Below, one piece after another: positions 2,295 through 19,942 of a DNA stretch of 32,000 nucleotides (the first letter of the stretch is position 1; the number at the start of each line of letters is the position of its first letter). The translations under genes were made by a program, and so were the position numbers. The notes under the pieces are model-generated. The model saw only the letters and a list, made by a program, of their open reading frames with translations. It was not told where the DNA came from and made no database searches. Source of the DNA: Alkalilimnicola ehrlichii MLHE-1 (lineage in GTDB: Bacteria; Pseudomonadota; Gammaproteobacteria; Nitrococcales; Halorhodospiraceae); contig NC_008340.1 in NCBI RefSeq assembly GCF_000014785.1, forward strand, positions 2,610,001-2,642,000, given 5' to 3'.

Positions 2295-2546
2295 ATGATC
2301 GATCTCGCCCGCACGCCGAAGCAGGTCGGCAACCTCATCCGTCGAAGCCGGAAGCAACAGGGCCTTACCCAACAAGCGCTTGGGGCGAAGGCCGGTTACC
2401 GGCAGGAGACCATCTCGCTCATCGAGAATGGCCATCCGGCCGCCAAGCTGGAAACCCTCCTGGCTATCCTCGCCGCGCTCGATCTCGAACTCCGGATCGC
2501 ACCACGCTCCAAGGGAAGCGCCGCTGACATCGAGGACCTCTTCTGA
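2295..2546 (+). CDS. hipB: XRE-family HTH antitoxin, HipB-like (83 aa)
   Basis: HTH core QQGLTQQALGAKAGYRQETISLIENG. Its stop overlaps the hipA start (TGATG). An AT-rich leader lies upstream (2216-2294). Confidence 0.8.
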   Translation: MIDLARTPKQVGNLIRRSRKQQGLTQQALGAKAGYRQETISLIENGHPAAKLETLLAILAALDLELRIAPRSKGSAADIEDLF

Positions 2547-4437: not shown

Positions 4438-5559
4438 ATGAAAAAGAAGAACACCCTCACCACCCCCCTCATGCTTTCAGGACTGCTGGTCGGCTCTGCC
4501 TTCACCCTGAGCGGGTGCGTGAGCAGTTCCTCCAGCAGTGGGGACGACGCCACCGGCCCGCAGCATGACAGCCAAGGCGTGTTTGCCGCCGGGGCGCCGC
4601 TGAATAACGAGCAGGAGCTCGACGACGTCATCGCAGCGGCCAACCGGGCCGTCGGCGAGGACGGGGTTGAGCAATTCCTTGATGAGTTGGAAGGTGCAAT
4701 CTTCGTCAAGAGCGTCGATGTGGCCGGTGCCTCGACCACCGATGACGCCGATCGCACCACGGCAGCCCGCGACCGGCTGCGCGAGCGTGCCGGCAGGTGG
4801 CGCCAGGAGGACGCACCGGACCGGGTCATCGCCGCCACCGTCCAGCAGGACGACTGCCCCAACGGCGGCCATATCGTCATCACCAGTGACAGCACCGAAA
4901 ACGACCGTTACGAGCGCTGGGATACCACCGTGGCGTTCCACGGCTGCGCGGTGAACACGCCCTCCTGGGGTGACGTGGTGGTGAACGGGCAGCTCGACGA
5001 AACCTGGGAGGAGTCCTGGGGCGATGAAAACTTCGAGAACTACTCCGTCCACTTCGATATCACCGGCAGCGCCGCCGGGGGTGATCTGGTCCTCTCCGGC
5101 GAGGAACACTGGGGCATCCGCGCTCGGTCGGGCGACGTTTTCTTCAGCGAGCAGGTCCGCATCCCGCGGCTCGAGTTCCTGGCCGGCGAGCACTACATCG
5201 GGTTCCTGGACGTGGACCTGAACTACGTGGAGCGAGAGGTGGAGGAGCAGGGGACCACCCGGTACCCCTACGAAGACCACTGGAGCGGTCGCATCGGCAC
5301 CTCCGGCATGCAGGGCCACATCGCGCTGGATACCCCGAAAACCGTCGCCGGGCCGAACTACGATGCCTGCCCCACAGAGGGCGAGTTGACCATCAGCGGC
5401 AATGGCACCGCCTCCGTGCTCTTCGGGATGGACACCGGCATCTCCAACGCAGAAGTCGCCCTGGTGATCAACAACGCGCTCAGCCAAACCTGGGATGACT
5501 GCGACGACTTCTTCGACGAGTTCGACCTGCTCGAAGGCATCTTCCACGGCGGCCTGTAA
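4438..5559 (+). CDS. Hypothetical acidic lipoprotein (373 aa)
   Basis: Signal peptide with lipobox MKKKNTLTTPLMLSGLLVGSAFTLSGC followed by a Ser-rich linker. GGAGAA RBS upstream. No family recognised. Confidence 0.7.
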   Translation: MKKKNTLTTPLMLSGLLVGSAFTLSGCVSSSSSSGDDATGPQHDSQGVFAAGAPLNNEQELDDVIAAANRAVGEDGVEQFLDELEGAIFVKSVDVAGASTTDDADRTTAARDRLRERAGRWRQEDAPDRVIAATVQQDDCPNGGHIVITSDSTENDRYERWDTTVAFHGCAVNTPSWGDVVVNGQLDETWEESWGDENFENYSVHFDITGSAAGGDLVLSGEEHWGIRARSGDVFFSEQVRIPRLEFLAGEHYIGFLDVDLNYVEREVEEQGTTRYPYEDHWSGRIGTSGMQGHIALDTPKTVAGPNYDACPTEGELTISGNGTASVLFGMDTGISNAEVALVINNALSQTWDDCDDFFDEFDLLEGIFHGGL

Positions 5560-5575
5560 GCCCACCTCAGCACCC

Positions 5576-5599
5576 GGCCCCGGGGGGTTCCCCGGGGCC
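5576..5599 (+). terminator. GC-rich hairpin downstream of the lipoprotein gene (possible terminator, no U-tract)
   Basis: GGCCCCGGGG-GGTT-CCCCGGGGCC, a perfect 10-bp stem 17 nt after the TAA stop. No T-run follows, so an intrinsic-terminator role is uncertain. Confidence 0.35.
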
Positions 5600-5654
5600 C
5601 GTGCCGACACCCTCACCGCATTCCAGCCTCAGTCCGGTACCGGTTCAACGGTCG

Positions 5655-5792
5655 CTATCGCCGCCGCGGCGGCCAGGCCAGGCTGAAGTCCCCGTCGTTA
5701 AAGGCCACCGGCAGGTCGGTCTCGTTCAGTCCGCCCACCGCCTGGTAGCGCTCGCGACGGACCACGAGACAGGCGGCGGTCACCGCCCAGTC
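5655..5792 (-). pseudogene. Internal fragment of a family-2 glycosyltransferase (45 codons between two stops)
   Basis: The minus-strand translation DWAVTAACLVVRRERYQAVGGLNETDLPVAFNDGDFSLAW matches the conserved GT2 block (xxACLxVRRxxxxxVGGxxExxxVAxNDxDxxL). It has no start and is bounded by TAG on both sides. Confidence 0.45.
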
Positions 5793-5840
5793 CTAGCACC
5801 ACGCCCCCGTGCTGCGGGCGCTGCACAAGGGGTGGCCGGG

Positions 5841-6227
5841 ATGATCAGCGTATCCATCGTCAGCCACCGCCACGGCACCATGGTGGCCCGGCTGGTCGAC
5901 GCCCTGCTGGCCCTGCCGGAGGTGGGTCAGGTGGTGCTCACCCTCAACCGCCCGGACTGGGTGGCGGGCCTGTTCATCCTGGTGCGGGCACCGGCCTACC
6001 AGGCGGTGGGCGGCTTCGACGAGGACTACTTCCTCCACTACGAAGACGTGGGCCTCTGCGCCCGCCTCTGGGCCGCCGGCCACCCGGTCGCCCTGGACTG
6101 CAACGTCAGCATCAGCCACGACGCCCAATACCGCAGCCACCGGGACCCCATCCACTTCCTCTGGCACGTCGGCAGCCTACTGCGCTACCTCCGCAAACAC
6201 CAAGGCGGCGCCCGCCGCCCGCAGTAA
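5841..6227 (+). pseudogene. Family-2 glycosyltransferase with a large internal deletion (128 aa left)
   Basis: The N-terminal GT2 start MISVSIVSHRHGTMVARLVDALLALPEVGQVVLTLN joins directly to the C-terminal block DWVAGLFILVRAPAYQAVGGFDEDYFLHYEDVGLCARLWAAGHPV. About 90-100 aa, including the DxD region, are missing. The stop lies in repeat-like sequence. Confidence 0.55.
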
Positions 6228-6244
6228 TCGCGGGGCACCACCTA

Positions 6245-6549
6245 CCCCGTCATCGCGAGGGCCGAAGGCTTTCTCCCCGTCATCGCGAGGGCCGAAGGCT
6301 TTCTCCCCGTCATCGCGAGGGCCGAAGGCCCGTGGCGATCCAGAGGGGTAGACTGCCACGTCGCTTCGCTCCTCGCAGTGACGGTGGGGGCGGATCCGCG
6401 CTCGCAGTGACAGTGGGGGGCGGATCCGCGCTCGCAGTGACAGTGGGGGGCCACCAACGCCCCGTCATCGCGAGGAGCGAAGCGACGCGGCGATCCACAC
6501 CCCGCCATGGACTGCCACGGCCCTACAGGGCACGCAGTGACGGTGGGCC
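6245..6549 (+). repeat. Hairpin-repeat array A3: 2 short 30-bp units, 1 full unit, 2 3'-arm units, 1 type-B unit
   Basis: CCGTCATCGCGAGGGCCGAAGGCTTTCTCC x2, then a full unit, GGCGGATCCGCGCTCGCAGTGACAGTGGGG x2, then CCGTCATCGCGAGGAGCGAAGCGACGCGGCGATCCACAC... A degenerate 3'-arm motif already begins at about 6219. Confidence 0.92.
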
Positions 6550-6606
6550 CGACACATGCCGTACAATACAAGCGTGGATGCCATACTCCCTGGGAGGCCC
6601 GGGACA

Positions 6607-6852
6607 ATGAAACAGGAAACGACCAAGATCACCATCCGTCTACCGCGACAAGACGTCGAGTTCGCCAAGGCCTACGCCAGGGCGCACGGCCTCAGCATGA
6701 CTGAAGTCATTGATCGTTACCTGCGTCGCCTGCGGGCGCTAGAGCGCCACCAGCCCAGCCCCGAACTGGACGCGATCACCGGCCTGCTGCCAGCCGACCT
6801 GGACGCTGAACAGGCGTACCGAGACCACTTAGTCGAGAAACATCGCCCGTGA
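6607..6852 (+). CDS. vapB: Ribbon-helix-helix-type antitoxin partner of the PIN toxin (81 aa)
   Basis: KITIRLPRQDVEFAKAYARAHGLSMTEVIDRYL is a typical RHH/CopG-like N-terminus. GGGAGG RBS lies at about 6591. The stop overlaps the vapC start (GTGA). ATG 6556 is an alternative start. Confidence 0.7.
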   Translation: MKQETTKITIRLPRQDVEFAKAYARAHGLSMTEVIDRYLRRLRALERHQPSPELDAITGLLPADLDAEQAYRDHLVEKHRP

Positions 6853-7250
6853 TCATGCTGGACCTGAACGTTCTTCTGGACGTTCTGCAAAAAAGGGCGC
6901 CGCATTATCAGGCATCCGCCGCCGTCCTCGAGCATGTCATCCACGGTGAAGAACAAGGCGCACTCAGCGCGCACGCAGTCACTACGGTTCACTACCTGGT
7001 GAGCCGGTACGCGACTCGCGCCGCGGCGGACGGCGCCCTGGATTGGCTTCTCCGGCACTTTCACGTGTGTGCAGTGGGCCGTGACGAACTGGAACAGGCC
7101 CGGTCCCTTGGCTGGCCCGACTTCGAGGACGCGGTTCTGGCATGTGTCGCGCAGAGTGCCGGGTGCAGCTACATCGTGACGCGAAATATCAAGGACTTCG
7201 AACGATCACCGGTAACGGCGTTAACGCCGCAGGAGTGGCTACTTCGCTGA
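6849..7250 (+). CDS. vapC: PIN-domain ribonuclease toxin VapC (133 aa)
   Basis: MLDLNVLLD (first acidic residue), WPDFEDAVLACVAQ and YIVTRNIKDF are typical PIN signatures. The gene is coupled to the upstream RHH gene. Confidence 0.85.
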   Translation: MIMLDLNVLLDVLQKRAPHYQASAAVLEHVIHGEEQGALSAHAVTTVHYLVSRYATRAAADGALDWLLRHFHVCAVGRDELEQARSLGWPDFEDAVLACVAQSAGCSYIVTRNIKDFERSPVTALTPQEWLLR

Positions 7251-7265
7251 GCTGAGTCCGAACCC

Positions 7266-7592
7266 TCCGTCATCGCGAGGGCCTCCTCCCCCGTCATCGC
7301 GAGGGCCGAAGGCTTTCCCCCCGTCATCGCGAGGGCCGAAGGCTTTCTCCCCGTCATCGCGAGGGCCGAAGGCCCGTGGCGATCCAGAGGGGTAGACTGC
7401 CACGTCGCTTCGCTCCTCGCAGTGACAGGGGGCGCACCCCCCGTCATCGCGAGGGCCGAAGGCCCGTGGCGATCCAGGGCGGTAGACTGCCACGTCGGCT
7501 TCGCCTCCTTGCAGTGACGGGGTGGCCCCTCCCCCGTCATCGCGAGGAGCGCAGCGACGCGGCGATCCATACCCCGGCATGGACTGCCACGC
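7266..7592 (+). repeat. Hairpin-repeat array A4: 3 short units, 2 full units, 1 type-B unit
   Basis: Same unit types as A3. The type-B end CCGTCATCGCGAGGAGCGCAGCGACGCGGCGATCCATACCCCGGCATGGACTGCCAC lies at about 7535-7592. Confidence 0.92.
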
Positions 7593-7666
7593 CCCTTCGT
7601 AGGCTTGCACAGCCAGTGTAAGGAACAACGGCTACGTTGAGATCAGGCCAAGGAAGACATATCATA

Positions 7667-8089
7667 ATGATAAGTCCCAAACCAAACGTAAGCGCCTTTG
7701 ATGGTTTCCCACCTACGGCGACTGAAGACCGCGCCATCCAGGGTGGGCCACTGTATCCGCCGGACACCGTGGTGGCGCTGGCGAGGGAAGAAGCGCTCGC
7801 TTTCTGGAGCCGAGGGGCTATTCGAGACGCAGAGAAGTGGGGGCTTGATGTCCCGAGCGCGTGTCAATTAGTGGTAATGGCCGTCCGGCACGGCCACTAC
7901 CTGGGCGCACAATGGTGCATCCAGGGGCCTCGCGGGCCATGGGCAGCCTGCGACGCCTACAAAGTCACGAATCACGAGTGGATCGAGCATGCCCATCGGC
8001 ACATACCGGTCACGTATTACCTGAAATTTTGTATCGCGAAGACCGGAGCAATGCTGCTTTCGGTCTCCAACCACCCGGAGGGTACCTGA
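7667..8089 (+). CDS. mqsR: MqsR-family toxin (about 140 aa)
   Basis: The C-terminal pattern ACDAYKV...YYLKFCIAKTGAMLLSVSNH parallels E. coli MqsR (WQDVYRP...VYLKITVIHDVLIVSFKE). It lies directly upstream of an MqsA-type antitoxin. AGGAAG RBS precedes ATG 7667; ATG 7637 is an alternative start. Confidence 0.7.
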   Translation: MISPKPNVSAFDGFPPTATEDRAIQGGPLYPPDTVVALAREEALAFWSRGAIRDAEKWGLDVPSACQLVVMAVRHGHYLGAQWCIQGPRGPWAACDAYKVTNHEWIEHAHRHIPVTYYLKFCIAKTGAMLLSVSNHPEGT

Positions 8090-8090
8090 C

Positions 8091-8705
8091 ATGACCCGGG
8101 GCACTCGCAACGCACTACGGCCCTGCCCCGCCTGTGGCGAGGGTCGCCTGGAGCCCAGGCAAACGACTCAGCGGGCGGAACATGCCGGCCTCAGCGAGGC
8201 AATCCCATTGCACTACGCCGTGTGCGACACCTGCGGATCCGAACTCGCAGAAGCCCCCGAGGCGAAAGCCAACAAGCGCGCCATGACCGCATTTCGCAAG
8301 CGCGCCGATGGCCTGCTCACCGGGGCGCAGATGCGGCAGGCCCGCAAAGCGCTGGGGCTTACGCAGGCGCAGGCCGCAAAGCTGTTCGGCGGCGGCCAAG
8401 TAGCCTTCTCCCGCTATGAGAACGACGACATCACGCAAAGCGAGGCCATGGACAGCCTGGTCCGCGTTTGCCTGGCCCAACCAGCCAACCTGACATTGCT
8501 GGCTGACCAAAAGGGCGTCTCAGCAATATTCACAACGGACGACAACTGGGCCAACGCACTCGTGCGGCGCCACATCCTTGGCATCAAGAGCGCCCTGGAG
8601 CACCAGATCGCCCCGGACCGCGTTGCCGAGCCAAGCCCTCAAGACCCCTTGAAGCGACACGCCAAAGTCATTGACATTCAGCGTTGGAGAAAAGCCGCAG
8701 CATGA
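8091..8705 (+). CDS. mqsA: MqsA-type antitoxin: N-terminal zinc ribbon, XRE HTH and a long C-terminal extension (204 aa)
   Basis: CPACGEG...CDTCGSE Cys4 ribbon, then LTGAQMRQARKALGLTQAQAAKLFGGGQVAFSRYENDD HTH. There are about 65-70 extra C-terminal residues relative to the 131-aa E. coli MqsA. Confidence 0.8.
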   Translation: MTRGTRNALRPCPACGEGRLEPRQTTQRAEHAGLSEAIPLHYAVCDTCGSELAEAPEAKANKRAMTAFRKRADGLLTGAQMRQARKALGLTQAQAAKLFGGGQVAFSRYENDDITQSEAMDSLVRVCLAQPANLTLLADQKGVSAIFTTDDNWANALVRRHILGIKSALEHQIAPDRVAEPSPQDPLKRHAKVIDIQRWRKAAA

Positions 8706-9139
8706 AAGCCAGCCCGCTGACCCTGCACGGGATCGAGTTCGTGCGCGTCCACGTAGAATCCGATCTCGAGGCGGAAACACGCCGTGCAGAGCAATTCCAG
8801 TTCGACGGCACCACTCTAAAGTGGGGGCTGGACCACGGTCGCGACGAGGATAACGGAACTTGGTGGGTGGCCGTTGGTTTCGGGACCCACCAAGAGGACG
8901 ACGAACCACGGTGTCCCTACATTTTGGATGTCCAGGCCGTCGGCATCGTTTCTGTCTCGGACCAGCTCCCCGAGAAAGACCACGAAAAACTCGCTTTCGA
9001 ATACGGCGCCGCCCTCGTCTACGGCGCCATTCGCGAGATGGTCACCAACATCACCGCCCGTAGCCTCGCCGGACCGCTAATGCTTCCCACGCCAAGCTTC
9101 ATCGGCGCACTGGAAACAAGAAAGCAGCCGGGCAACTGA
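8702..9139 (+). CDS. SecB-like chaperone (145 aa), third gene of a TAC-type locus
   Basis: ATGA overlap with mqsA. The pattern CPYILDVQAVGIVSV...FEYGAALVYGAIREMVTNITARSLAGPLMLPTPSF matches the SecB core (C..Q.GIF.....YP.ARE.I....SRG.FP.L.L.P.NF). Confidence 0.7.
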   Translation: MKASPLTLHGIEFVRVHVESDLEAETRRAEQFQFDGTTLKWGLDHGRDEDNGTWWVAVGFGTHQEDDEPRCPYILDVQAVGIVSVSDQLPEKDHEKLAFEYGAALVYGAIREMVTNITARSLAGPLMLPTPSFIGALETRKQPGN

Positions 9140-9160: not shown

Positions 9161-9701
9161 CCCCGTCATCGCGAGGGCCGAAGGCTTTCCCCCCGTCATC
9201 GCGAGGGCCGAAGGCTTTCCCCCCGTCATCGCGAGGGCCGGAGGCCCGTGGCGATCCAGAGGGGTAGACTGCCGCGTCGGCTTCGCCTCCTCGCAGTGAC
9301 GGGGTGGCCCCTCCCCCCGTCATCGCGAGGGCCGGAGGCCCGTGGCGATCCAGGGCGGTAGACTGCCGCGTCGGCTTCGCCTCCTCGCAGTGACGGGGTG
9401 GCCCCTCCCCCCGTCATCGCGAGGGCCGGAGGCCCGTGGCGATCCAGGGCGGTAGACTGCCGCGTCGGCTTCGCCTCCTCGCAGTGACGGGGTGGCCCCT
9501 GCCCCGTCATCGCGAGGGCCGGAGGCCCGTGGCGATCCAGAGGGGTAGACTGCCGCGTCGGCTTCGCCTCCTCGCAGTGACGGGGTGGCCCCTCCCCCCG
9601 TCATCGCGAGGGCCGAAGGCCCGTGGCGATCCAGGGCGGTAGACTGCCGCGTCGGCTTCGCCTCCTCGCAGTGACGGGGTGGCCCCTCCCCCCGTCATCG
9701 C
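9161..9701 (+). repeat. Hairpin-repeat array A5: 2 short units, 5 full units, and a 6th unit cut after CCGTCATCGCA
   Basis: Full-unit starts at 9225, 9319, 9413, 9506 and 9600 (period 93-94). The last unit is truncated at 9701, where the hipB-like coding sequence begins. Confidence 0.93.
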
Positions 9702-9953
9702 AAGGGGTGGACCCAGGAAGAACTCGCTGAGCGAGTCGGCGTTGGCGTGATCACGATCCGCCGGGTTGCCAAGGGCTCCCCCCGGGTGGCCATCGGCACT
9801 TACTTTGAAGCGGCCGCACTGGTTGGGGTTTCACTGTTCACCGATGATCCGGACAGGCTCAAACGCGAGCATGCAACCCAGCAGGAACGGCTGACGCTGC
9901 TACCCAAGCGAGTCCGTCGTCAAACACCAGAGCCCCTCGACGATGATTTCTAG
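9702..9953 (+). pseudogene. 5'-truncated XRE/HipB-like antitoxin gene (N-terminus replaced by the repeat array)
   Basis: The frame reads ...KGWTQEELAERVGVGVITIRRVAKGSPRVAIGTYFEAAALVGVSL, i.e. helix 2-3 of an XRE HTH without helix 1 or a proper start. Only an internal GTG at 9747 is available. Confidence 0.6.
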
Positions 9954-10185
9954 CAACCGCGCTTATGTCTGGATCTGGCTGCCCGGCCAGACATCGCCTG
10001 TAGTAGCCGGACTTGTTGAGCGCGACGACCAAGACCGGTACCGCTTTGCCTATGGTCGGCGCTATCTGGCCCGTGAAGATGCAATCAGCCTGTATCCCGA
10101 CGAACTGCCCTGCTGTAGTCATCGCCGCCAGCGGCATGTGCGAATGACGAACCACGGCTTCCCCAGCATTTCCCTAACGGCCTGA
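9943..10185 (+). pseudogene. HipA N-terminal fragment (80 codons, homology lost after about 55 aa)
   Basis: AYVWIWLPGQTSPVVAGLVERDDQDRYRFAYGRRYLAREDAISLYPDELP is the HipA N-terminal subdomain pattern. The kinase core is absent. Confidence 0.65.
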
Positions 10186-10331
10186 AACATGCAGCAGCGG
10201 TGTTAGACTAAACCGAGGTCAAAACCCTCATCGCCACGTGGTGGATCAAAGGCCAGAACATTGCCCACGAGCCCCAGGAATACACAAGGCTCCGAGAAAA
10301 ATCGCCGTCCTCAAGAATTGCCCATGGAGAC

Positions 10332-10766
10332 ATGATGCGGACTCGAGCCCGCCCCAAAAGGAATTCCAAGCGCCGGCTACATCCTGAATTGACCGTCGAG
10401 CGGCGCCGGGCACTCGCCCAGTGTGTCAAATATGTCGGCAGCCCCTTGCACAAGCGCAACCCCGGTGATTTCGGGCTGACGCCGCCCGTTGCGGCCCGTC
10501 CCGGGAAGAGCCTGTGTGATGATGTCTCGATCTTCGAGCGAGACAAGGCTCAGGTGCTGCTGCGAGAGGGAGTGCAAGCGGGCCTTGTAAGCCGTGATGC
10601 CGACGAGGGCTTCCCGCGCCACATCTGGATGGTTCACGAAGGGCGAGTCATCGAGGCACGTTGTGACAACATGGAAGCCGGAACCTACCATGGCTACCCC
10701 CTGGAAGCCGACGATCCCATGGCCGATGCTGTAAAGCGCGAATGGAGCCGGAGGCAAGCAGAATGA
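10332..10766 (+). CDS. Hypothetical basic 144-aa protein, first gene of an unknown two-gene operon
   Basis: GGAGA RBS. Arg/Lys-rich N-terminus. Conserved-looking blocks YVGSPLHKRNPGDFGL and GTYHGYPL. Its stop overlaps the next start (ATGA). No family recognised with confidence. Confidence 0.6.
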   Translation: MMRTRARPKRNSKRRLHPELTVERRRALAQCVKYVGSPLHKRNPGDFGLTPPVAARPGKSLCDDVSIFERDKAQVLLREGVQAGLVSRDADEGFPRHIWMVHEGRVIEARCDNMEAGTYHGYPLEADDPMADAVKREWSRRQAE

Positions 10767-12097
10767 GCGATACCCTGCGATTCGACTGGGAGTGGCTGGC
10801 CTACCCAGAATTGCCTGCTGAAGAGGCTGTGACCTTTGCTGACCTGAGCATCCGGCTCAACGACAAGGCCATGACTCGCCTCTACGACGTGGCCGCCAAG
10901 ACCGAGCGCGACAACCTTTTCGCTGCCGCGTACCCGTTGGCTCAATTTCTAGCGGAAAACTGGTGGCGCATCCGCTGGGAGCCCGCGCCGGCCAGTCTTT
11001 CAAACGCGGGGCCACAGTGGCGTCTGGCGCATAACATCGCAGCCGCTGGTGCCGGCTATGTCTGGCCCAACATCACCTTCCACGGCGATGGCGAGCGGAT
11101 GTTCATGCACGTCGGACCCCACACCTCTGAGTCCTCCGCCGTGCAGTTCGTCTCGGAGGGAAATGGTGTGCTCGACGCCGCAATGTTCGAAGCAGAGGCC
11201 GATCGTTTCATGGAAGGCGTCTTGGCCCGACTGCAAGCCTGTGGCCACCCGGATACGGAGCTCGAACAGCTCTGGCGAGCGGTCCAGGCCGAGCGTTCCA
11301 GCAACGAAGACTGTGAGCGGCGGCGGCTGGAGGCCATGGCGGGCTTCGATCCCGACGAAGCGCCAGAGGCCATGCTGGACGAACTGTTGCAGCTCGAACA
11401 GCGCCTTGGGGTTTCAGCCATCCGAGAATTGGCTGCGGCCTCGCGGGCAAACACACTGGACCATGTGCGAACCCTGGAAGAGGCACTTTGTGCTCGGGGC
11501 CTTCGGTATCAGGTCCCGGATACGAGTCGAATGAGGATTGAATGGCCTGCCCCGCCATGGCGCAGGGCTGTCGAAGTCGCAAAGGCCGCTCGACAGGCCT
11601 GGGGCCTGAACAATGGCCCACTGGATAACACGCAGCTCGCCGCCATCGTGGATCTACCGCGCGAGCAGCTTGACTCTTCGGCACCTGAAGCAGTGCCCTA
11701 CAGCGCGAGCCTGCGCGGGGGGGAAGAGGGCGACAGACTAGTGTTCAGAACCGGCCATCGGCACGGACGCCGCTTCGCAATCGGTCGCCTGATGGGTGAC
11801 GCCTTCTACTCACCCGGGGAAGGGGGGGCACTGGCGGCCGCAACGGATGCCCGGACGGGACGCCAGAAGTTTCAGCGGGCCTTCGCGCAGGAGCTGCTGT
11901 GCCCATTCGAGGCATTGAGCGACTTTCTCAACCTGGGCCAGGACTGGGATGCATGTGACGATATCACCCCCCCGAACGAGGACCGCATCGAAGAGGCAGC
12001 GGAGTATTTCGACGTCTCACCGGTGCTCGTTCAGAGCACGCTTGTCAACCACAACGTCTTGCCCCGCGACGTACTCGAAATAACGGACGCCGCCTGA
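10763..12097 (+). CDS. Hypothetical 444-aa protein whose C-terminal region resembles an ImmA/IrrE (M78) domain lacking the HExxH motif
   Basis: GGAGG lies 8 nt upstream of ATG 10763. N-terminal block AAAYPLAQFLAENWWRIRWEP. The C-terminal GRRFAIGRLMGDAF...RQKFQRAFAQELLCPFEAL aligns with the M78 pattern RRFTLAHELGHLL...E.EANRFAAELLMP. Confidence 0.65.
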   Translation: MSDTLRFDWEWLAYPELPAEEAVTFADLSIRLNDKAMTRLYDVAAKTERDNLFAAAYPLAQFLAENWWRIRWEPAPASLSNAGPQWRLAHNIAAAGAGYVWPNITFHGDGERMFMHVGPHTSESSAVQFVSEGNGVLDAAMFEAEADRFMEGVLARLQACGHPDTELEQLWRAVQAERSSNEDCERRRLEAMAGFDPDEAPEAMLDELLQLEQRLGVSAIRELAAASRANTLDHVRTLEEALCARGLRYQVPDTSRMRIEWPAPPWRRAVEVAKAARQAWGLNNGPLDNTQLAAIVDLPREQLDSSAPEAVPYSASLRGGEEGDRLVFRTGHRHGRRFAIGRLMGDAFYSPGEGGALAAATDARTGRQKFQRAFAQELLCPFEALSDFLNLGQDWDACDDITPPNEDRIEEAAEYFDVSPVLVQSTLVNHNVLPRDVLEITDAA

Positions 12098-12121
12098 GAA
12101 CCCGAGGAGCCAAACAACACA

Positions 12122-12619
12122 CTGTCATCGCGAGGGCCGAAGGCTTTCCCCCGTCATCGCGAGCCCCCCACCCCGCTGCGCGGGCCCGAATCAACGAGGA
12201 ACGGGGCACCCCCGGTCATCGCGAGGGCCGAAGGCCCGTGGCGATCCAGGGCGGTAGACTGCCGCGTCGGCTTCGCCTCCTCGCAGTGACGGTGGGGGCG
12301 ACTTTCCGCTTCCGGCACAGTCAAGTTCTTCAAGAGGGCCGAAGGCCCGTGGCGATCCAGGGCGGTAGACTGCCACGTCGGCTTCGCCTCCTCGCAGTGA
12401 CGGGGTGGCCCCTCCCCCCGTCATCGCGAGGGCCGAAGGCCCGTGGCGATCCAGAGGGGTAGACTGCCACGTCGGCTTCGCCTCCTCGCAGTGACGGTGG
12501 GGATGGGGCCCCGCTCGCAGTGACGGTGTGGATGGGCCCCCGCTCGCAGTGACGGTGGGGGCGGGTCCGCTCCTCGCGGTGACGGTGGGGGCGGGTCCAC
12601 GCTTGCAGTGGCGATGAGG
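12122..12619 (+). repeat. Hairpin-repeat array A6: 1-2 short units, 3 full units (one carrying the 37-bp insert module), 4 3'-arm units
   Basis: Full units lie between about 12214 and 12495. TTCCGCTTCCGGCACAGTCAAGTTCTTCAAGAG is at 12300-12337. Reiterated GCTCGCAGTGACGGTGKGG-type units run from 12496 to 12619. Confidence 0.92.
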
Positions 12620-12648
12620 CACCACCACCCAAAAAGGAGAACACCACC

Positions 12649-14031
12649 ATGGACGACCCCACCCTCCTCCACCACGGCGGCGCTGACGGCGTCACCGGCA
12701 GTTGCCACCAACTCTACGCCAGCCCCGACCACTCACTCCTCATCGACTGCGGCCTCTTCCAAGGCGAAGACGCCGGCCCCGACCCCCTCGCCCAACACAC
12801 CGTCGACTTCGACGTCGACACCCTCCAGGCCCTCGTCCTCACCCACGTCCACATCGACCACGTCGGCCGGCTGCCCTACCTGCTGGCCGCCGGCTACCGC
12901 GGCCCCATCCTCTGCAGCCACCCCTCCGCCCACCTGCTGCCGCTGGTCATTGACGACGCCCTGCGCATCGGCTTCACCCGTGACGGCCAACTCATCGCGC
13001 GCTTCCAGCAGCAGGTCCAAAACCAACTGACCCCCCTCAAATACAGCCGCTGGCACACCGTCACCGACAACCGCCACCTCACCCTCAAGGTCCGCCTGGA
13101 GCGCGCCGGCCACATCCTCGGCTCCGCCTACGTCAAAGTCGCCATCCGGGACAAACGCACCGGCCGCACACACCGCACCGTCTTCTCAGGCGACCTGGGC
13201 GCCCCCGGCTCGCCGCTGCTGCCCGCCCCGCAATCGCCCCACCACGCCGACCTCCTCGTCCTGGAGGCCACCTACGGCGACCGCAGCCACGAAAACCGCG
13301 ACCAGCGCCGCCACCGCCTGCGCCAGGCCATCGAACACGCCGTGCAGGACGGCGGCACCGTCATCATCCCCGCCTTCAGCATCGGCCGCACCCAGGTGCT
13401 GCTCCACGAGCTGGAAGCGCTCACCCACACCGCCCAAGGCCCCTGGCGCCACCTGCGCATCATCGTCGACTCCCCCCTGGCCGCCCGCTTCAACCGCGTC
13501 TACCGCCGCCTGAAACCCTACTGGGACCAAGAGGCCAGAAAACGGGCCCGACAAGGCCGCCACCCCCTCAACTTCAGCCGCCTGCACACCGTCGACAGCC
13601 ACGCCCAACACCAACACACCGTCACCACCCTGGCCCAGGGCGGCCACCCGGCCGTGGTCATCGCCGCCAGCGGCATGTGCGCCGGCGGCCGCGTCGTCAA
13701 CTACCTGAAAGCCATGCTCGGCGACCCACGCCACCACGTGCTGTTCGTCGGCTACCAAGCGGAAGGCACCCCCGGGCGGGACATCCAGCGCTACGGCCCA
13801 ACCGGCGGCTGGGTAGACCTGGACGGAGAACGGTTCGACATCCGCGCCGGCGTCACCACCATCGGCGGCTACTCCGCCCATGCAGACCAACAGGACCTAC
13901 TGCGGTTCGTACAACAGATGAAGCGCCCACCCGGCACCATCCGACTGGTGCACGGCAGCGCCCGCGCCCGGGAGACACTGGCCAACGCCCTCACCCGGCA
14001 GGGCCATACCGTGACCCAGGGAGGGTCATGA
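12649..14031 (+). CDS. Beta-CASP family metallo-beta-lactamase-fold nuclease (RNA-metabolising MBL hydrolase), 460 aa
   Basis: AAAGGAGAA RBS. LLIDCGLFQG, HxHxDH motif LTHVHIDHVGRLPYL, later SGDLG, IPAFSIGRTQ, GYSAHADQ and RLVHGS, typical of beta-CASP enzymes. Confidence 0.85.
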   Translation: MDDPTLLHHGGADGVTGSCHQLYASPDHSLLIDCGLFQGEDAGPDPLAQHTVDFDVDTLQALVLTHVHIDHVGRLPYLLAAGYRGPILCSHPSAHLLPLVIDDALRIGFTRDGQLIARFQQQVQNQLTPLKYSRWHTVTDNRHLTLKVRLERAGHILGSAYVKVAIRDKRTGRTHRTVFSGDLGAPGSPLLPAPQSPHHADLLVLEATYGDRSHENRDQRRHRLRQAIEHAVQDGGTVIIPAFSIGRTQVLLHELEALTHTAQGPWRHLRIIVDSPLAARFNRVYRRLKPYWDQEARKRARQGRHPLNFSRLHTVDSHAQHQHTVTTLAQGGHPAVVIAASGMCAGGRVVNYLKAMLGDPRHHVLFVGYQAEGTPGRDIQRYGPTGGWVDLDGERFDIRAGVTTIGGYSAHADQQDLLRFVQQMKRPPGTIRLVHGSARARETLANALTRQGHTVTQGGS

Positions 14032-14076: not shown

Positions 14077-14399
14077 CCCCGTCACTGCGAGCGCCGAAGG
14101 GGCGTGACAGTCCATACGGCGTGTGGATCGCCGCGTCGCTTCGCTCCTCGCGATGACGGGGGCGGCGCCCCCACCGTCACCGCGAGAGCGGACCCGCCCC
14201 CACCGTCACTGCGGGCGGGGGCCCATCCACACCGTCACTGCGAGGAGGCGAAGCCGACGTGGCAGTCTACCCCTCTGGATCGCCACGGGCCTTCGGCCCT
14301 CGCGATGACGGGGGAAAGCCTTCGGCCCTCGCGATGACGGGGGAAAGCCTTCGACCCTCGCGATGACGGTGAGAAAGCCCTCGGCCCTCACGATAACGG
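14077..14399 (-). repeat. Hairpin-repeat array A7, inverted orientation: type-B, 3 3'-arm units, 1 full unit, 4 short units as read on the + strand
   Basis: Reverse complements of all unit types are present, e.g. GGAGGCGAAGCCGACGTGGCAGTCTACCCCTCTGGATCGCCACGGGCCTTCGGCCCTCGCGATGACGGGGG and GAAAGCCTTCGGCCCTCGCGATGACGGGG reiterated. Confidence 0.9.
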
Positions 14400-14657: not shown

Positions 14658-15788
14658 ATGACATCGGAATCGGACCTGTGTAGCCGAATTTCACGCGTGA
14701 GCATCCGCGGGTTCCGTAGCCTAGCCTGTGTCGAGAACCTTGAGCTCCCGCAACTAGCGGTCCTGATTGGGGCAAACGGATCGGGCAAATCCAACCTCAT
14801 CCGATTCTTCGAGATGCTGAGCTACTCGCTCAAGGGCCGGAACCTTCAGCAGTTCGTGATCGAAAAAGGGGGCGGTGACGACCAGCTCTTTTTCGGAGCG
14901 CGGACCACGTCCCGCCTGGAAGCAGAGATCGCGCTGGAGACTGAGCAGGGCACCAATGAGTACCGGATGGCCCTGACCCACGTCGCACCAGACTCCCTGG
15001 CCTTCGCCGAAGAGGCTTTCCGGTTCTCCCGGCACGACCGCGAAGGCAGCAGCGACTGGATTCACCTCCCCATGCCGGCTCAGGAATCGGGCCTGCCGGT
15101 GGCCGCAGCGGATAGTGGTCAGCGGTCGCGGCGCACAGCACGCACGCTCCTTTACCTGCTGCGCAACTGCGCCACCTTCCAGTTTCATGACACCTCGGCA
15201 AAGGCCAGTCTGAACATGCGCTGGGATGAGAGCGAAAACGCACGCATGCGCTCGGATGGCGGAAACCTGGCCCCCATACTGCTGCATCTTTCTCAGGAGC
15301 ATCCCCGGCGTTACCGGCTCATCACGCGGCAGATTCAACGCGTTCTCCCCGTGTTCGAAGACTTCGACCTGCAATCGACGGGGGGCAAGGTGTTGCTGCG
15401 CTGGCGCGCCCGAAACAGCGACAACACCTTCGGGCCGCATCTGACATCGGACGGCTCGCTGCGACTGTTTTGCCTATTCACCCTGCTCAATCTGCCGGGG
15501 GAAATGCTCCCGGACGTACTCATGATCGACGAACCGGAACTGGGCCTTCATCCGCACGCTATCGCCCTGACCGCCGATATGCTCAAGAGCCTCTCCGTCC
15601 ATCGGCAAGTCTTCATCGCCACCCAGTCACCACTGATGGTCGACGCCTTCGACGTGGATAACATCCTCGTCGCCAGCCTGAAAGACGGCGCAACAGACCT
15701 GACGCCCATGGACCGTGACGAATACCGGGTCTGGCTTGAAAGCGGCTACCAGCCCTCGGATCTATGGCTCAAAGAACCGGTGGGCTGA
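14658..15788 (+). CDS. AAA_21/ABC-type (SMC-like) ATPase, 376 aa, defence-associated type
   Basis: Walker A LIGANGSGKSNL close to the N-terminus, distal Walker B LLMIDEPELGLHP and signature-like TSDGSLR. This split-ABC architecture is typical of OLD/AbiL/PARIS-type ATPases. Confidence 0.85.
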   Translation: MTSESDLCSRISRVSIRGFRSLACVENLELPQLAVLIGANGSGKSNLIRFFEMLSYSLKGRNLQQFVIEKGGGDDQLFFGARTTSRLEAEIALETEQGTNEYRMALTHVAPDSLAFAEEAFRFSRHDREGSSDWIHLPMPAQESGLPVAAADSGQRSRRTARTLLYLLRNCATFQFHDTSAKASLNMRWDESENARMRSDGGNLAPILLHLSQEHPRRYRLITRQIQRVLPVFEDFDLQSTGGKVLLRWRARNSDNTFGPHLTSDGSLRLFCLFTLLNLPGEMLPDVLMIDEPELGLHPHAIALTADMLKSLSVHRQVFIATQSPLMVDAFDVDNILVASLKDGATDLTPMDRDEYRVWLESGYQPSDLWLKEPVG

Positions 15789-15791
15789 GTG

Positions 15792-16354
15792 ATGAGTTCC
15801 AGTGTTCGATTGCTTGTGGTCTGCGAGGGACAGACAAGGGCGGAGGAAACGTCAACATCGAGCGACTGGCTATCCACCTGGCCAACGAATACCCCAACCA
15901 TGACTTTGTCACCACGTTGGTCGACCTCTACGGGTTCAGTGACCGGGAAGGACGAAGTCGGACAGAGCTTGAAGAGGCCATCCGCGAAGCCGTCCTAAGC
16001 CGTCGTCGAGACATTCAGACGGATAGAGTCATCCCGTATGTGCAGCAGTATGAATTCGAAGCGCTGCTGTTCAGCGATATTCAGGGTTTTCAATGGGTGG
16101 TTGATGGCTGGTCCACTGGGGCAGAGCGCCAACTTCAGAGCATCGTCGATAATTACTCGGACCCCGAGCAAATCAACGACAACCCGACCACCGCGCCCTC
16201 GAAACGCCTGGAAGCCATCTTCCGCGGTTACTATCGGAAGACCGAACATGGCCCGATCATTGCCGAAGAAATCGGGTTGGCAGTGATCCGCAGTCAGTGC
16301 CCAGGCTTCGACGGTTGGATAACCAAACTGGAAGGCCTTAATCGACCGCGTTAA
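15792..16354 (+). CDS. DUF4276-family (TOPRIM-like) protein interrupted by an apparent single-base frameshift near 15849-15851
   Basis: The N-terminal hallmark MSSSVRLLVVCEGQTRAEET is in frame 3 (15792-15851). The rest, VNIERLAIHLANEYPNHDFVTTLVDLYGF...EFEALLFSD...PSKRLE, is in frame 2 to TAA 16354. The only frame-2 ATG (15764) overlaps the ATPase gene and lacks the VxCEGxTE block. Confidence 0.7.
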
Positions 16355-16400: not shown

Positions 16401-16433
16401 ACCCCACACGTCACCGGGGGCCCCACACCCTCA

Positions 16434-16628
16434 CCCCGTCAATGCGAGCCCCGAACCCTTCACCCTCGTCACTGCGAGCCCCCGAAGGGGGCGCGGCAGT
16501 CCACCGCCCTGGATCGCCACGGGCCTTCGGCCCTCGCGATGACGGGGGAAAGCCTTCGGCCCTCACGATGACGGGGTGATGCCTCCCCACCGGCCCTGCG
16601 AACCGCCAAAAGGGGCGCGGCAGTCCAC
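16434..16628 (-). repeat. Hairpin-repeat array A8, inverted and degenerate (about 1 full unit plus arm units), abutting the glycan locus
   Basis: CCCTCGTCACTGCGAGCCCCCGAAGGGGGCGCGGCAGTCCACCGCCCTGGATCGCCACGGGCCTTCGGCCCTCGCGATGACGGGGG plus GAAAGCCTTCGGCCCTCACGATGACGGGG. It ends 5 nt before ATG 16633. Confidence 0.8.
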
Positions 16629-17019: not shown

Positions 17020-18123
17020 ATGGTGTCCTTCACGTCCATTAATTGGCCCAACCGCATCCTGGTCACCGGCGGGGCCGGCTTCATCGGCTCGGCGCTGGTC
17101 CGCCAGCTCATTGCCGAGACCGACAGCACCGTCATCAACGTCGATGCCCTCACCTACGCCGGCAACCCCGAATCCCTGGCAGAGGCCCGCCACCATCCGC
17201 GCCATGTCTTCGAGCAGGAGGACATTCGCAACCGCCCCGCGTTGGACCGCCTCTTCCGCGAACACCGCCCCGACGCCGTCATGCACCTGGCCGCGGAATC
17301 CCACGTGGACCGCTCCATCGAGGGCCCCGCCGCCTTCATCGAGACCAACGTCACCGGCACCCAGAACCTGCTGGAAGCGGCCCGGGAATACTGGCAGGCA
17401 CTGGAGCCGGCGGCCCGGGAGCGCTTCCGCTTCCACCACATCTCCACGGACGAGGTCTACGGCGACCTGGGCCCCAACGACCCGGCCTTCACCGAAGAGA
17501 CCCCCTACGCCCCCAGCTCGCCCTACTCGGCCAGCAAGGCCGGCAGTGACCACTTGGTCCGCGCCTGGCACCACACCTACGGCCTGCCCGTACTGCTCAC
17601 CAACTGCTCCAACAACTACGGCCCCTACCAGTTCCCGGAAAAGCTCATCCCCCTGATGATCCTCAATGCCCTCGAAGGCAAGCCCCTGCCGGTGTACGGC
17701 CAGGGCGACAACGTCCGCGACTGGCTGCACGTGGAGGATCACGCCCAGGCACTGCGCCGGGTGCTCGAAGCCGGCCGGCCCGGGCGCACCTACAACATCG
17801 GGGGCCGGGCGGAGCGCACCAACCTGGAAGTCGTCCACGCCATCTGCGCGCATCTGGACGAACTGCGCCCCCGTCCATCCGGCCGGCACGAGGCGTTAAT
17901 CCAATTCGTAACAGACCGCCCCGGCCATGATCGGCGCTACGCCATCGACGACAGCCGGATCAGCCAGGAACTCGACTGGCAGCCGCAGGAGAGCTTCGAA
18001 TCGGGCCTGCGCCGAACCGTCGAGTGGTACCTGGAGAACACCGAGTGGGTGCAGCGGGTGCAAAGCGGCGCCTACCGGGAATGGCTGGAGACCAACTACG
18101 GCCATCGCGGGGTGGCCGAATGA
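17020..18123 (+). CDS. rfbB: dTDP-glucose 4,6-dehydratase
   Basis: [23 protein letters not shown] Rossmann motif, [19 protein letters not shown] and [15 protein letters not shown] (YxxxK). Confidence 0.92.
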
Positions 18124-19921: not shown

Positions 19922-19942
19922 TCCGACCACGGCAAGGACATC

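Follow-up and report, generated by a model that had tools for sequence, protein, structure and literature searches.

The two genes at positions 10332 to 12097 of the window (the whole 32,000-nucleotide stretch of Alkalilimnicola ehrlichii MLHE-1 DNA analyzed here) constitute a self-contained, horizontally mobile two-gene module with a patchy distribution. They encode a 144-aa protein and a 444-aa protein that, judged from sequence, belong to two unannotated protein families, of which the family of the small protein is new. The reading that we favor, with a probability of roughly 55%, is a Rosmer-like, toxin-first module that would belong to the toxin-antitoxin (TA) or abortive-infection type and contribute a new family of toxins. 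The original prediction had proposed the pair as a candidate for a new TA or defense system.

All features of the cassette lie on the forward strand. The small gene (10332 to 10766, ATG start) and the large gene (10763 to 12097) share an ATGA start/stop overlap at 10763 to 10766, a mark of translational coupling, and each has its own ribosome binding site, so that the gene layout originally described can be read directly from the sequence. The GGAG site of the small gene (10326 to 10329) precedes ATG 10332 by 2 nt and a second ATG, at 10335, by 5 nt, and the GGAGG site of the large gene (10750 to 10754) lies within the 3' end of the small gene, 8 nt before ATG 10763. An alternative 451-aa reading of the large gene from an ATG at 10742 is possible; the homologs begin at the MS(D/E)xL position. 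Among 75 related loci, 55 had an overlap of this kind (35 ATGA, 11 TTGA, and 9 GTGA).

A leader region (10110 to 10331) travels with the cassette, as seen in comparison with other records: from about 10112 on, the window matches two other A. ehrlichii records at almost every base, and the sequence further upstream differs in both of them, with IS21 and a group II intron reverse transcriptase present in CP184336. Between 10150 and 10345, no convincing sigma-70 or other promoter-like site was detected, nor was any inverted repeat or palindrome of the kind expected of an operator, and an Rfam scan of the whole window gave 0 matches. The GC content of the cassette is 0.59 to 0.64, compared with 0.67 to 0.70 in the adjoining sequence. 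Repeat arrays are present on both sides, at 9161 to 9706 and at about 12100 to 12630, which agrees with the placement of the cassette beside an array. The label of "decayed hipBA" that had been given to the open reading frames at 9747 to 10185 was not confirmed: these gave 0 Pfam matches at an E value of ≤0.001, no BLASTP similarity to the intact HipA of the window, and no PDB sequence match.

The pairing of the two genes is obligate. In 79 of 80 genome loci picked by the large protein, the large gene is immediately preceded by the small gene in the same orientation, and among 81 loci picked by the small protein, the large gene lies directly downstream wherever room exists; the co-occurrence on which the idea of a pair depends thus extends to other genomes across many phyla, nearly without exception. 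No third conserved gene was found around the pair. The loci span more than 15 bacterial phyla, with unrelated flanks, and the pair is carried by more than 500 of 185,579 species-representative genomes. Of the two proteins, the small one shows the higher conservation in 127 of 129 loci (median identity to the window proteins, 46.8% versus 34.9%), and the identities of the two proteins to those of the window are correlated (r = 0.71). The pair was present on 8 of 72,556 plasmids, a few of which are conjugative or mobilizable, and carriage by phages is nearly absent, with 0 of 50,697 phage records and 1 of 2.9 million IMG/VR contigs containing it. The module is less frequent in phages and plasmids than many classical TA families.

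Neither protein could be placed in a named family when it was first described, and both are indeed absent from the curated family libraries. Searches of Pfam, NCBIfam, and PHROGs matched neither protein, sequence-profile searches of the PDB returned nothing for either, and the PADLOC 2.0 models gave only short, partial, noise-level matches to NsnC (E value of 0.007) and RmrA (E value of 0.003). The RmrA match (0.0032, 14.8 bits) covers 68 residues of the large protein (aa 221 to 288), running from the linker into the start of the C-terminal domain. The literature on the HGYP motif, the Burkholderia dolosa CdiI protein, and COG2856 toxins contained no description of this gene pair.

Homologs of the large protein numbered at least 464, and genomic relatives numbered at least 507. 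The AF2 model of the protein is confident (pLDDT of 93.4 and pTM of 0.91) and contains two domains joined by a linker. The N-terminal domain (about aa 1 to 160; 10763 to 11242) consists of two beta-beta-beta-beta-alpha repeats with a PUR/Whirly-like topology, as assigned by DSSP from the model, and Foldseek aligned it to CdiI (5ffp_A) with a probability of 0.85 and weakly to PURA (8cht) and MRP1/2 (2gid). Conservation identifies NWWRIRWEP (aa 66 to 74; 10958 to 10984) as the signature of this domain, with W67, W68, R69, W72, and E73 invariant in 48 large homologs. The helical linker (about aa 161 to 261; 11243 to 11545) has helices at residues 166 to 245 in the model. The remainder of the protein (11546 to 12094) is a domain of the M78 (ImmA/IrrE/CapP) fold with an HTH-like end, recognized by both Foldseek and hhalign. 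The ImmA/IrrE-like C terminus that had been suspected is thereby confirmed as an M78 fold: CapP (7t5t) was matched over 189 columns with an E value of 6.5e-4 and a probability of 1.0, IrrE (3dti) was matched with a probability of 0.8, and weak matches to PF06114 (Peptidase_M78) were obtained for 12 of 48 relatives (best E value of 5e-4). The large protein of the window itself had no match to Pfam M78 at an E value of ≤1, and the gathering threshold was not reached.

The active site of this M78 domain is dead. In place of HExxH, the protein carries the degenerate motif RRFAIGRLMGD (aa 336 to 346; 11768 to 11800), in which R342 stands at the first His, L343 at the catalytic Glu, and D346 at the second His, in a register set by profile-profile alignment (hhalign) to the TLAHEICH motif of a sister family described below and by the RF...G pattern of M78. 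R337, F338, and R342 are invariant in the large family, D346 is 96% conserved, and the degenerate motif is kept in 108 of 120 relatives, among which the sole HExxH (1/120) lies off-site. The C-terminal half of the family contains no conserved His. The counterpart of the M78 motif E..A..FAaELLxP, found by alignment to the sister family, is RQKFQRAFAQELLCP (aa 367 to 381; 11861 to 11905), in which the invariant Q368 replaces the Glu that serves as the third zinc ligand. Because HExxH and the third ligand are replaced across the family by R342, L343, D346, and Q368, the large protein is, to judge from these residues, a pseudo-protease with a catalytically dead M78 domain. The loss of the catalytic and zinc-binding residues had not been noticed in the original prediction.

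For the small protein, 314 homologs were collected, and a profile search of 1.84 billion representatives placed at least 906 clusters at 50% identity in its family. Among the best 150 of the 906 clusters, essentially all members stand alone, at a length of about 140 aa; the longer ones are explained by miscalled starts, one cNMP-binding fusion, and one frameshifted fusion of the small and large proteins, and none of the 150 showed a fusion to polymorphic-toxin delivery domains. The AF2 model (pLDDT of 83.5) predicts a basic N-terminal tail, a helix, a conserved loop, further helices, a three-stranded sheet, and a C-terminal helix. N11, K13, and R14 are conserved in the tail, and Y34, G36, H40, K41, P44, D46, C62, D63, E108, Y119, H120, Y122, and P123 are invariant across 41 diverse homologs. 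The mean column identity of the family across phyla is 46%.

These residues fall into a few blocks. The segment from Y34 to P52 (YVGSPLHKRNPGDFGLTPP; 10431 to 10487) is nearly invariant in the window family and may form a partner- or substrate-binding loop, in a part of the model where prediction is of low confidence (pLDDT of about 50 for residues 41 to 60). It is followed by the invariant C62-D63 (10515 to 10520), of which the Cys does not vary in the sister family either (GKCP), and by E108 (10653 to 10655), which is invariant in the window family and at least 90% conserved in the sister family (as E81). The block from G117 to P123 (GTYHGYP; 10680 to 10700) has the H-G-Y-P core in common with the sister family (WHGYPW), to which hhalign aligned the small protein with a probability of 97.5% and an E value of 6.9e-12. 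The motif blocks that had been quoted for both proteins are thus real, and no other part of either family is better conserved.

The strict or nearly strict conservation of Lys, Cys, Glu, and His-Gly-Tyr-Pro suggests that the small protein is an enzyme. A divergent branch on the Tistrella plasmid pTM2 has Gln and Lys at the Glu and His positions, so that either the branch has lost its activity or these two residues are perhaps not catalytic. Interpretations of the conserved residues as papain-like Cys-His, His-Me finger, ART (H-Y-E), dsRBD/HicA-like, or RelE-like were considered, and none was adopted. Foldseek searches with the model found nothing significant (best E values of 0.33 in the PDB and 0.08 in BFVD), and the resemblance to small nuclease-type toxins that had been put forward as an impression gained no significant support.

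A sister module, consisting of a small "WHGYPW" protein and an M78 peptidase of about 470 aa, was found, for example, in Marinobacter sp. ELB17 (locus L070, 13138 to 14951) and Vreelandella titanicae (locus L170). It has the same two-gene layout with an overlap, and both of its proteins are homologous to those of the window, the small proteins as noted above and the large proteins over both domains (hhalign probability of 94.8%, 361 columns), with NWSxLxLEQ as a weaker form of the N-terminal signature. The two modules differ in that the sister large proteins have retained HE(I/L/M)(C/A)H together with the Glu ligand and score above the Pfam M78 threshold, and in that the sister small protein has neither the basic tail nor the PGDFGLTPP loop of the window family. 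The sister family is also unannotated and uncharacterized.

The two genes of the window family decay asymmetrically. Where the large gene is intact, the small gene has been independently disrupted in 14 of 79 loci, by nonsense mutations (4), frameshifts (3), in-frame deletions that remove the catalytic-looking core (3), deletions at the 5' end (3), and loss of the whole gene (1). In the reverse direction, the large gene, despite being three times longer, is broken in only 2 to 3 of 63 loci with an intact small gene; the two counts come from locus sets of different collections, and some of the frameshifts may be errors of metagenome-assembled genome (MAG) assembly. An asymmetry of this kind would be expected of a small product that does harm when its partner is missing; the sign is indirect but consistent with that reading, and it speaks against the large protein as the toxin.

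On the favored reading, the 144-aa protein would be the effector, a small enzyme acting on some cellular component; conservation of the protein across phyla makes a universally conserved target probable, and RNA would be a low-confidence guess as to its identity. The 444-aa protein would be the neutralizing partner, supplied in fixed proportion through translational coupling. It would hold the effector inactive by binding rather than by cleavage, because the M78 domain has lost all of its zinc ligands and the catalytic Glu and carries a conserved R342/D346/Q368 site instead. The effector may be clamped in the former substrate cleft, by the PUR/Whirly/CdiI-like domain at the N terminus, or by both, perhaps at the invariant HKRNPGDFGLTPP loop, and it could be set free by a cue such as a nucleic acid, a product of a phage, or the partner's own turnover. 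The layout of the two genes, their constant pairing, the lost active site, the homology to the sister module with its active protease, and the asymmetric decay are established by the data, whereas toxicity, neutralization by binding, the trigger, and a role in phage defense are put forward here as proposals.

The same proteins could instead operate as a regulatory switch of the ImmR/ImmA, DdrO/IrrE, or CapH/CapP kind, in which the small protein would be a nucleic acid-binding regulator and the large protein a sensor or antiregulator, with cleavage replaced by sequestration and single-stranded nucleic acid perhaps sensed through the PUR/Whirly-like domain. The closest solved structure is indeed that of CapP, a sensor protease that is encoded beside its small substrate and activated by single-stranded DNA (ssDNA) (bioRxiv 10.1101/2022.04.27.489752). 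The retention of an active protease beside a homologous small protein in the sister family is consistent with such a switch, as are the PUR/Whirly-type topology, which is typical of binders of ssDNA or RNA, and the conserved basic tail of the small protein. However, Pfam, the AF2 model, and Foldseek identified no HTH, RHH, or AbrB-type DNA-binding fold in the small protein, and the pattern of invariant residues (His, Lys, Cys, Asp, Glu, His, and Tyr), together with the mean column identity of 46% across phyla, resembles that of an enzyme and not that of a repressor. The flanks contain no conserved target genes or operators, the neighbors varying by genome, and a regulator without a conserved target would be hard to keep in more than 500 genomes. 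We consider this alternative unlikely.

The genomic neighborhood bears both on the favored reading and on a second alternative. In favor of the former, the local context is rich in TA and defense genes, including HipA, an MqsA-like module, and HEC-01 at 2.5 kb downstream, and on a Massilia plasmid the pair adjoins DptH, a patatin-like protein, and a PD-(D/E)XK nuclease. Across 80 genomes, however, the immediate neighbors are mostly metabolic or polysaccharide genes rather than defense genes, so that the expected enrichment in defense islands proved weak. The pair might alternatively be seen as a two-subunit accessory enzyme of surface polysaccharide (O-antigen or capsule) loci, with the small protein as the catalytic subunit and the large protein as scaffold or regulator. 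The sister module lies mostly inside such loci (5 of the 7 distinct contexts examined, among them ihfB-wzz-[module]-wzx-pseB-degT and a KpsC/S capsule locus), 8 of 64 window-family genome loci that extend over 9 kb or more carry at least two polysaccharide genes within 10 kb, and the window contains rml and pse-type genes from 17927 on. On the other side, 56 of the 64 loci are without such neighbors, and their flanks vary from pyruvate kinase to DXP synthase. Polysaccharide loci are hotspots for mobile DNA, which explains the association without a functional link. Repeated loss of the small gene alone would also be odd for a catalytic subunit whose scaffold is retained, and we regard this alternative as improbable. 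The weakest alternative, that both proteins are nonfunctional leftovers of an ancestral active M78 module, could draw on the lost protease site and the frequent disruption of the small gene but is effectively refuted by strong purifying selection on both families across phyla, the conservation of the replacement residues R342, Q368, and D346, the confident AF2 models, the conserved coupling overlap, and the hundreds of intact pairs.

A TA or abortive-infection module also allows a broader and more speculative picture, which we offer tentatively: an immune or addiction module, hitherto unrecognized and distributed across phyla, that would unite a new fold of enzymatic toxin, a dead ImmA/IrrE domain acting as a "pseudo-substrate clamp," a PUR/Whirly-like N-terminal sensor through which a nucleic acid or phage cue sets the toxin free, and, in the sister family of O-antigen and capsule loci, the ancestral cleavage-based switch. 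If this were true, the sister and window families would be a natural before-and-after pair for the passage from protease-controlled to binding-controlled neutralization, a step that the intact protease of the sister family makes directly testable. On the favored reading, the module would also be a large addition to the TA and defense repertoire, overlooked by Pfam, NCBIfam, PADLOC, and PHROGs, and would combine a new toxin fold with a clear pseudoenzyme antitoxin in which conserved Arg, Asp, and Gln stand in for the zinc site. Both families merit profile models of their own, as their members are currently annotated as "hypothetical" or, wrongly, as "metallo-endopeptidase."

Among known toxins, those of the RelE/ParE/HigB (BECR) type resemble the small protein in their small size, in the predicted succession of helices, three-stranded antiparallel sheet, and C-terminal helix, and in having a conserved Glu and His on adjacent strands. 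This superfamily supplied 12 of the top 50 PDB Foldseek neighbors of the small protein and was the only recurring theme among these nonsignificant matches. No individual match was significant, however (E values of 0.33 to 3 and TM scores of ≤0.3), there was no Pfam match, and the small protein exceeds those toxins in length by about 50 residues and has a conserved loop and an invariant Cys, which they lack. The CdiI immunity protein of B. dolosa AUO158 (5ffp) aligns with the N-terminal domain of the large protein over 168 columns at the probability given above, and both proteins would neutralize a cognate toxin by binding. That match has an E value of 0.1 and a TM score of 0.45 on the target only, and no contact-dependent inhibition (CDI) or polymorphic-toxin context is present here.

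The CapH/CapP, DdrO/IrrE, and ImmR/ImmA pairs likewise have a small partner gene adjacent to that of the large protein, and no structures match the C-terminal half better than those of CapP and IrrE, with the match covering the peptidase fold and the HTH-like subdomain. CapP has H96, H100, and E129 as zinc ligands and E97 as the catalytic residue (bioRxiv 10.1101/2022.04.27.489752). In contrast to the window protein, those proteases are active enzymes with a GAF domain at the C terminus, and their substrate is an HTH repressor of the XRE type, whereas the window pair has a dead site, an extra domain that is N-terminal and of another fold, and a partner that is not an HTH protein.

The closest published parallel is RosmerTA, in which antitoxins with ImmA protease domains are combined with many unrelated toxins, an experimentally validated class in which 58% of the pairs begin with the toxin gene (Ernits et al. 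2023, PMC10440598). The theme of a small effector with an ImmA-type partner that the original prediction invoked is therefore established in the literature, whereas PADLOC did not assign the window pair itself to Rosmer, the RmrA match being at noise level and the RmrT model giving no match. The large protein further departs from the RosmerTA scheme in having neither HExxH nor the third ligand and in carrying the PUR/Whirly/CdiI-like domain of about 160 aa instead of an N-terminal HTH, and the small protein represents, on present comparisons, a new family. In common with RosmerTA and the "ImmA/Rosmer zone" of NetFlax (PMC10440598), the window pair is a two-gene operon of a kind that is often toxin first, with a large partner of the ImmA/IrrE fold, and it resembles RosmerTA in its gene overlap, in its patchy, mobile spread, and in belonging with small partners that are varied and often unannotated. 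It also has the generic layout of type II TA systems, with adjacent, co-oriented, and usually overlapping genes that are inherited as a unit and patchily distributed.

The cassette comprises a small gene (10332-10766, forward strand; 144 aa, ATG start) and a large gene (ATG at 10763 to stop at 12097, forward strand; 444 aa), whose stop and start codons overlap in an ATGA at 10763-10766. GGAG lies shortly before the small-gene ATG and GGAGG lies 8 nt before that of the large gene; both start codons are supported because the homologue alignments begin at the same residues. The original prediction of ATGA-overlapping 144-aa and 444-aa genes, each with a ribosome binding site, was confirmed by direct reading of the sequence, and the sequence blocks quoted with it are real, being the most conserved parts of both families (41 and 48 homologues). 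No confirmation was obtained for the label "decayed hipBA" given to the ORFs upstream. The closest relatives of both proteins, at 98-99% identity, are "hypothetical proteins" from Alkalilimnicola ehrlichii. Neither protein had a match in Pfam, NCBIfam, or PHROGs scans, PDB sequence-profile searches were empty for both, and PADLOC returned noise-level partial matches only, to NsnC (E 0.007) and RmrA (E 0.003), the latter covering 68 residues from the linker of the large protein into the start of its C-terminal domain.

The two genes form an obligate, self-contained unit. In a survey of orthologue pairs, which upheld their co-occurrence, the small gene was directly upstream and on the same strand in 79 of the 80 genome loci that a search with the large protein yielded, and in the 81 loci found with the small protein, the large gene came next wherever the contig had room (56 intact, 13 cut by the contig end, 5 without room). 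Start/stop overlap was kept among 75 loci as ATGA (35), GTGA (9), or TTGA (11), and clustering of all flanking ORFs found no third conserved gene. Across loci, the closer one protein is to its window counterpart, the closer its partner tends to be as well (r = 0.71 between the two identities), in keeping with joint inheritance. The small family comprises 906 clusters at 50% identity, essentially all of which, among the best 150 of 906, are stand-alone proteins of ~140 aa; the large family has at least 464 homologues in a 5.8-billion-protein set and more than 507 relatives in one-genome-per-species contigs. Carriers include Desulfobacterota, Verrucomicrobiota, Chloroflexota, Acidobacteriota, Planctomycetota, Cyanobacteria, Spirochaetota, Myxococcota, and Alpha- and Gammaproteobacteria, among others. 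The module occurs in 0 of 50,697 phage records, 1 of 2.9 million IMG/VR contigs, and 8 of 72,556 plasmids.

Across 41 diverse homologues, the invariant residues of the small protein are Y34, G36, H40, K41, P44, D46, L49, C62, D63, E108, Y119, H120, Y122, and P123. Its AF2 model (pLDDT 83.5) runs from a basic tail through a helix, a ~25-residue loop, further helices, and a three-stranded antiparallel sheet to a C-terminal helix; the loop is almost invariant in sequence yet predicted with low confidence. A Foldseek search with this model gave no significant neighbour, its best E values being 0.33 for the PDB and 0.08 for BFVD. The sole recurring theme, 12 of the top 50 weak PDB matches, was the RelE/ParE/HigB toxin superfamily, which may hint at a resemblance at the level of the modelled fold and is not evidence for membership.

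The large protein was modelled with confidence (pLDDT 93.4, pTM 0.91). In the model, residues 1 to 160 form two beta-beta-beta-beta-alpha repeats, a PUR/Whirly-type topology; Foldseek relates them to 5ffp, a CdiI immunity protein, with probability 0.85, and weakly to PURA and MRP1/MRP2. Helices make up residues 166 to 245. For the C-terminal half, the matches are CapP (7t5t; E 6.5e-4, probability 1.0, 189 columns) and IrrE (3dti), both ImmA/IrrE-family (M78) sensor proteases in which a peptidase domain is followed by an HTH-like subdomain. The residues invariant in 48 homologues are W67, W68, R69, W72, and E73 (NWWRLRWEP) and a C-terminal block of R337, F338, R342, Q368, Q371, R372, F374, L379, C380, and P381. 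In a profile alignment, the canonical RFTLAHELGH becomes RRFAIGRLMGD, with R342, L343, and D346 at the positions of the first His, the Glu, and the second His of HExxH, and the motif E..A..FAaELLxP becomes RQKFQRAFAQELLCP, with Q368 in place of the ligand Glu. Among 120 relatives, HExxH occurs in one only, and off-site there, and of the H/E/D/C-type residues in the C-terminal half, just D346, E377, and C380 reach 80% conservation. Judged from these alignments, the large protein is a pseudo-protease, and because the replacement residues are themselves invariant or nearly so, its site is remodelled and selected rather than decayed. The fold match would suit a CapP-like regulatory switch, a reading that is unlikely. 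CapP has zinc ligands H96, H100, and E129 and catalytic residue E97 (bioRxiv 10.1101/2022.04.27.489752); the large protein has no equivalent of any of them.

A scan of the loci fetched for comparison (L numbers) for canonical M78 motifs found two ~470-aa proteins, in L070 (Marinobacter sp. ELB17) and L089, each downstream of a window-type pair, at a distance of between a few hundred and a few thousand bases. Both exceed the Pfam Peptidase_M78 threshold of 22 bits (46.5 and 40.2) and retain HEICH and the Glu ligand, and each is preceded by an overlapping gene for a ~135- to 145-aa protein with the motifs R.KH, GKCP, LL..G, IY...V.YEA, and WHGYPW. In hhalign comparisons of the window and sister families, the small proteins aligned with a probability of 97.5% (E 6.9e-12) and the large proteins with a probability of 94.8% (E 4.9e-8; 361 columns spanning both domains). 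Profile homology in both partners indicates that the window pair is the protease-dead branch of a wider superfamily combining a small xHGYP protein with an N-domain-M78 protein, the sister family being equally unannotated. The two small families share a Lys, a Cys that opens a helix, an Ala and a Gly in the helix after it, Glu-Ala on one strand, and His-Gly-Tyr-Pro on the strand that follows, all of them fully or at least 90% conserved in either family. This set looks catalytic, with the caveat for Glu and His that a third divergent branch, on Tistrella mobilis plasmid pTM2 (L163, 3496-5254), has Gln and Lys there (EHKNKRW...ICP...GTYKGWP). The 417-aa pTM2 partner is labelled "ImmA/IrrE family metallo-endopeptidase" although it lacks HExxH, the kind of annotation error that the large family invites. 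Sister modules lie at L070 13138-14951, L089 7763-9584, L166 6001-7768, and L170 7001-8799 and in L171, L172, and L173; the partners in L173 are separated by an inserted HNH/RRXRR gene. A 231-aa protein on mobilizable plasmids (Acidithiobacillus caldus pLAtc3, L174 2923-3618; also NC_010600) consists only of the NW..RL-type N-terminal domain, without the M78 part or a small partner; its gene has trbL on one side and an N6 DNA methylase gene on the other, and the protein may be a stand-alone neutraliser (anti-toxin or anti-defence).

Gene integrity was compared in two symmetrical samples, loci with an intact large gene and loci with an intact small gene. The small gene was independently inactivated in 14 of 79 loci of the first kind, by nonsense codons (four loci), frameshifts (three), 5' deletions (three), complete absence (one), or in-frame deletions (three) that keep both ends and the coupling while removing the whole C62...H120 core (two loci) or the YHGYP strand (one). 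The large gene, three times longer, was broken in only 2 to 3 of 63 loci of the second kind, a difference of more than 10-fold in disruptions per kilobase between counts in which some frameshifts are possibly MAG errors and the samples are different collections. This asymmetry is the pattern expected if the small product were harmful when unguarded; a large protein acting as the toxin is incompatible with it. In 127 of 129 loci, the small protein is the more conserved partner, which is how enzyme toxins usually compare with binding antitoxins. We infer, with a probability of roughly 55%, that the pair is a toxin-first toxin-antitoxin (TA) or abortive-infection module in which the predicted pseudo-protease would hold a novel, putative enzymatic effector neutral through binding; part of the remaining probability is assigned to no particular reading.

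The TA/defence interpretation of the original prediction is partly supported overall. Direct neighbours of the pair vary widely and are mostly metabolic, with defence or TA genes in the minority (SoFic, PtuA, PsyrA, AbiEii, LmuB, a type I S subunit, and a type IV restriction enzyme). On a Massilia sp. H6 plasmid (L162, 4738-6302), a clear defence-island setting, DptH (a Dnd-associated restriction protein) flanks the pair on one side and a patatin-like phospholipase and a PD-(D/E)XK nuclease on the other; the small gene there is annotated at only 80 aa and may be truncated. Surface-polysaccharide genes (rmlA/C, pseB-like, degT, CMP-sugar synthetase, neuB, and sulfotransferase) occupy 17927-29400 of the window. 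O-antigen or capsule clusters house the sister module in five of seven distinct contexts, one reading ihfB-wzz-x-[module]-wzx-pseB-degT and another adjoining KpsC/S-type Capsule_synth genes. The window-type pair, too, tends to adjoin surface-polysaccharide genes, at least two of them lying within 10 kb in 8 of 64 genome loci of at least 9 kb (raw count), mostly in Gammaproteobacteria; L037, L046, L064, L070, L077, L089, and L115 are among the loci concerned. A polysaccharide-linked accessory enzyme is a very improbable reading of the pair.

Addiction and defence genes abound in the cassette's stretch of the window. An intact HipA is encoded at 2546-3859, and an overlapping three-gene module at 7637-9139 places an MqsA-like zinc-ribbon/HTH antitoxin (8091-8705; Pfam E 2.6e-17) between 150-aa and 151-aa ORFs without a family match. 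The same layout recurs in the closest sequenced strain, A. ehrlichii CP184336 (L164, 14333-15695), as DUF4258, an MqsA-like HTH protein, and a 169-aa protein without a family; such modules may be tripartite TA systems (toxin-antitoxin-chaperone-like). At 14658-16354, 2.5 kb downstream of the cassette, an AAA_21 ATPase (376 aa) and an overlapping DUF4276 protein (196 aa) make up a complete candidate defence pair, HEC-01, with near end-to-end PADLOC matches to the HEC-01A and HEC-01B models (E 6e-110 and 2e-141). A beta-CASP/RMMBL metallo-hydrolase gene (12649-14031) directly adjoins the pair in four gammaproteobacterial loci, the others being L164 (11385-12164), L089 (4358-6004), and L060 (8039-9304, 11302-11502, and 14169-14606). 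It is truncated in L164 and broken into three pieces surrounding the pair in Pseudomonas lopnurensis, which suggests a hotspot for the insertion of such cassettes at this gene or its end. The GC content of the cassette (0.59 to 0.64) is below that of the surrounding repeat arrays and genes. GC-rich imperfect-palindrome arrays part almost every cassette in the first 16.5 kb (1585-2173, 3870-4296, 6245-6451, 7288-7547, 9161-9706, 12100-12630, 14166-14399, and 16409-16482), with units of ~28 to 30 bp and ~90 to 95 bp, a core of CGTCATCGCGAGGGCCGAAGGC...CCTCGCAGTGACGG, and up to five tandem copies at 96% identity; a window scan gave them no Rfam match, and they resemble REP/BIME-type elements that mark an island prone to recombination. 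In L164, an IS21-family element (transposase and IstB) and a group II intron RT (5162-8781) occupy the place of the repeat array and ORFs 9747-10185 just upstream of the cassette, showing recent rearrangement there.

The family is large, conserved, and wholly unannotated, and its evolutionary story is clear, while the pair falls inside an already recognised theme. RosmerTA is an experimentally validated class in which antitoxins with an ImmA protease domain accompany many unrelated toxins; 58% of cases are toxin-first, and an N-terminal HTH is frequent (PMC10440598). The window pair resembles RosmerTA in layout but is not a member by PADLOC model match. Its large protein, unlike those of RosmerTA, fails the defining M78 catalytic motif and is a predicted dead protease, it carries a PUR/Whirly/CdiI-like N-terminal domain where RosmerTA commonly has an HTH, and its small-protein family is new by comparison.
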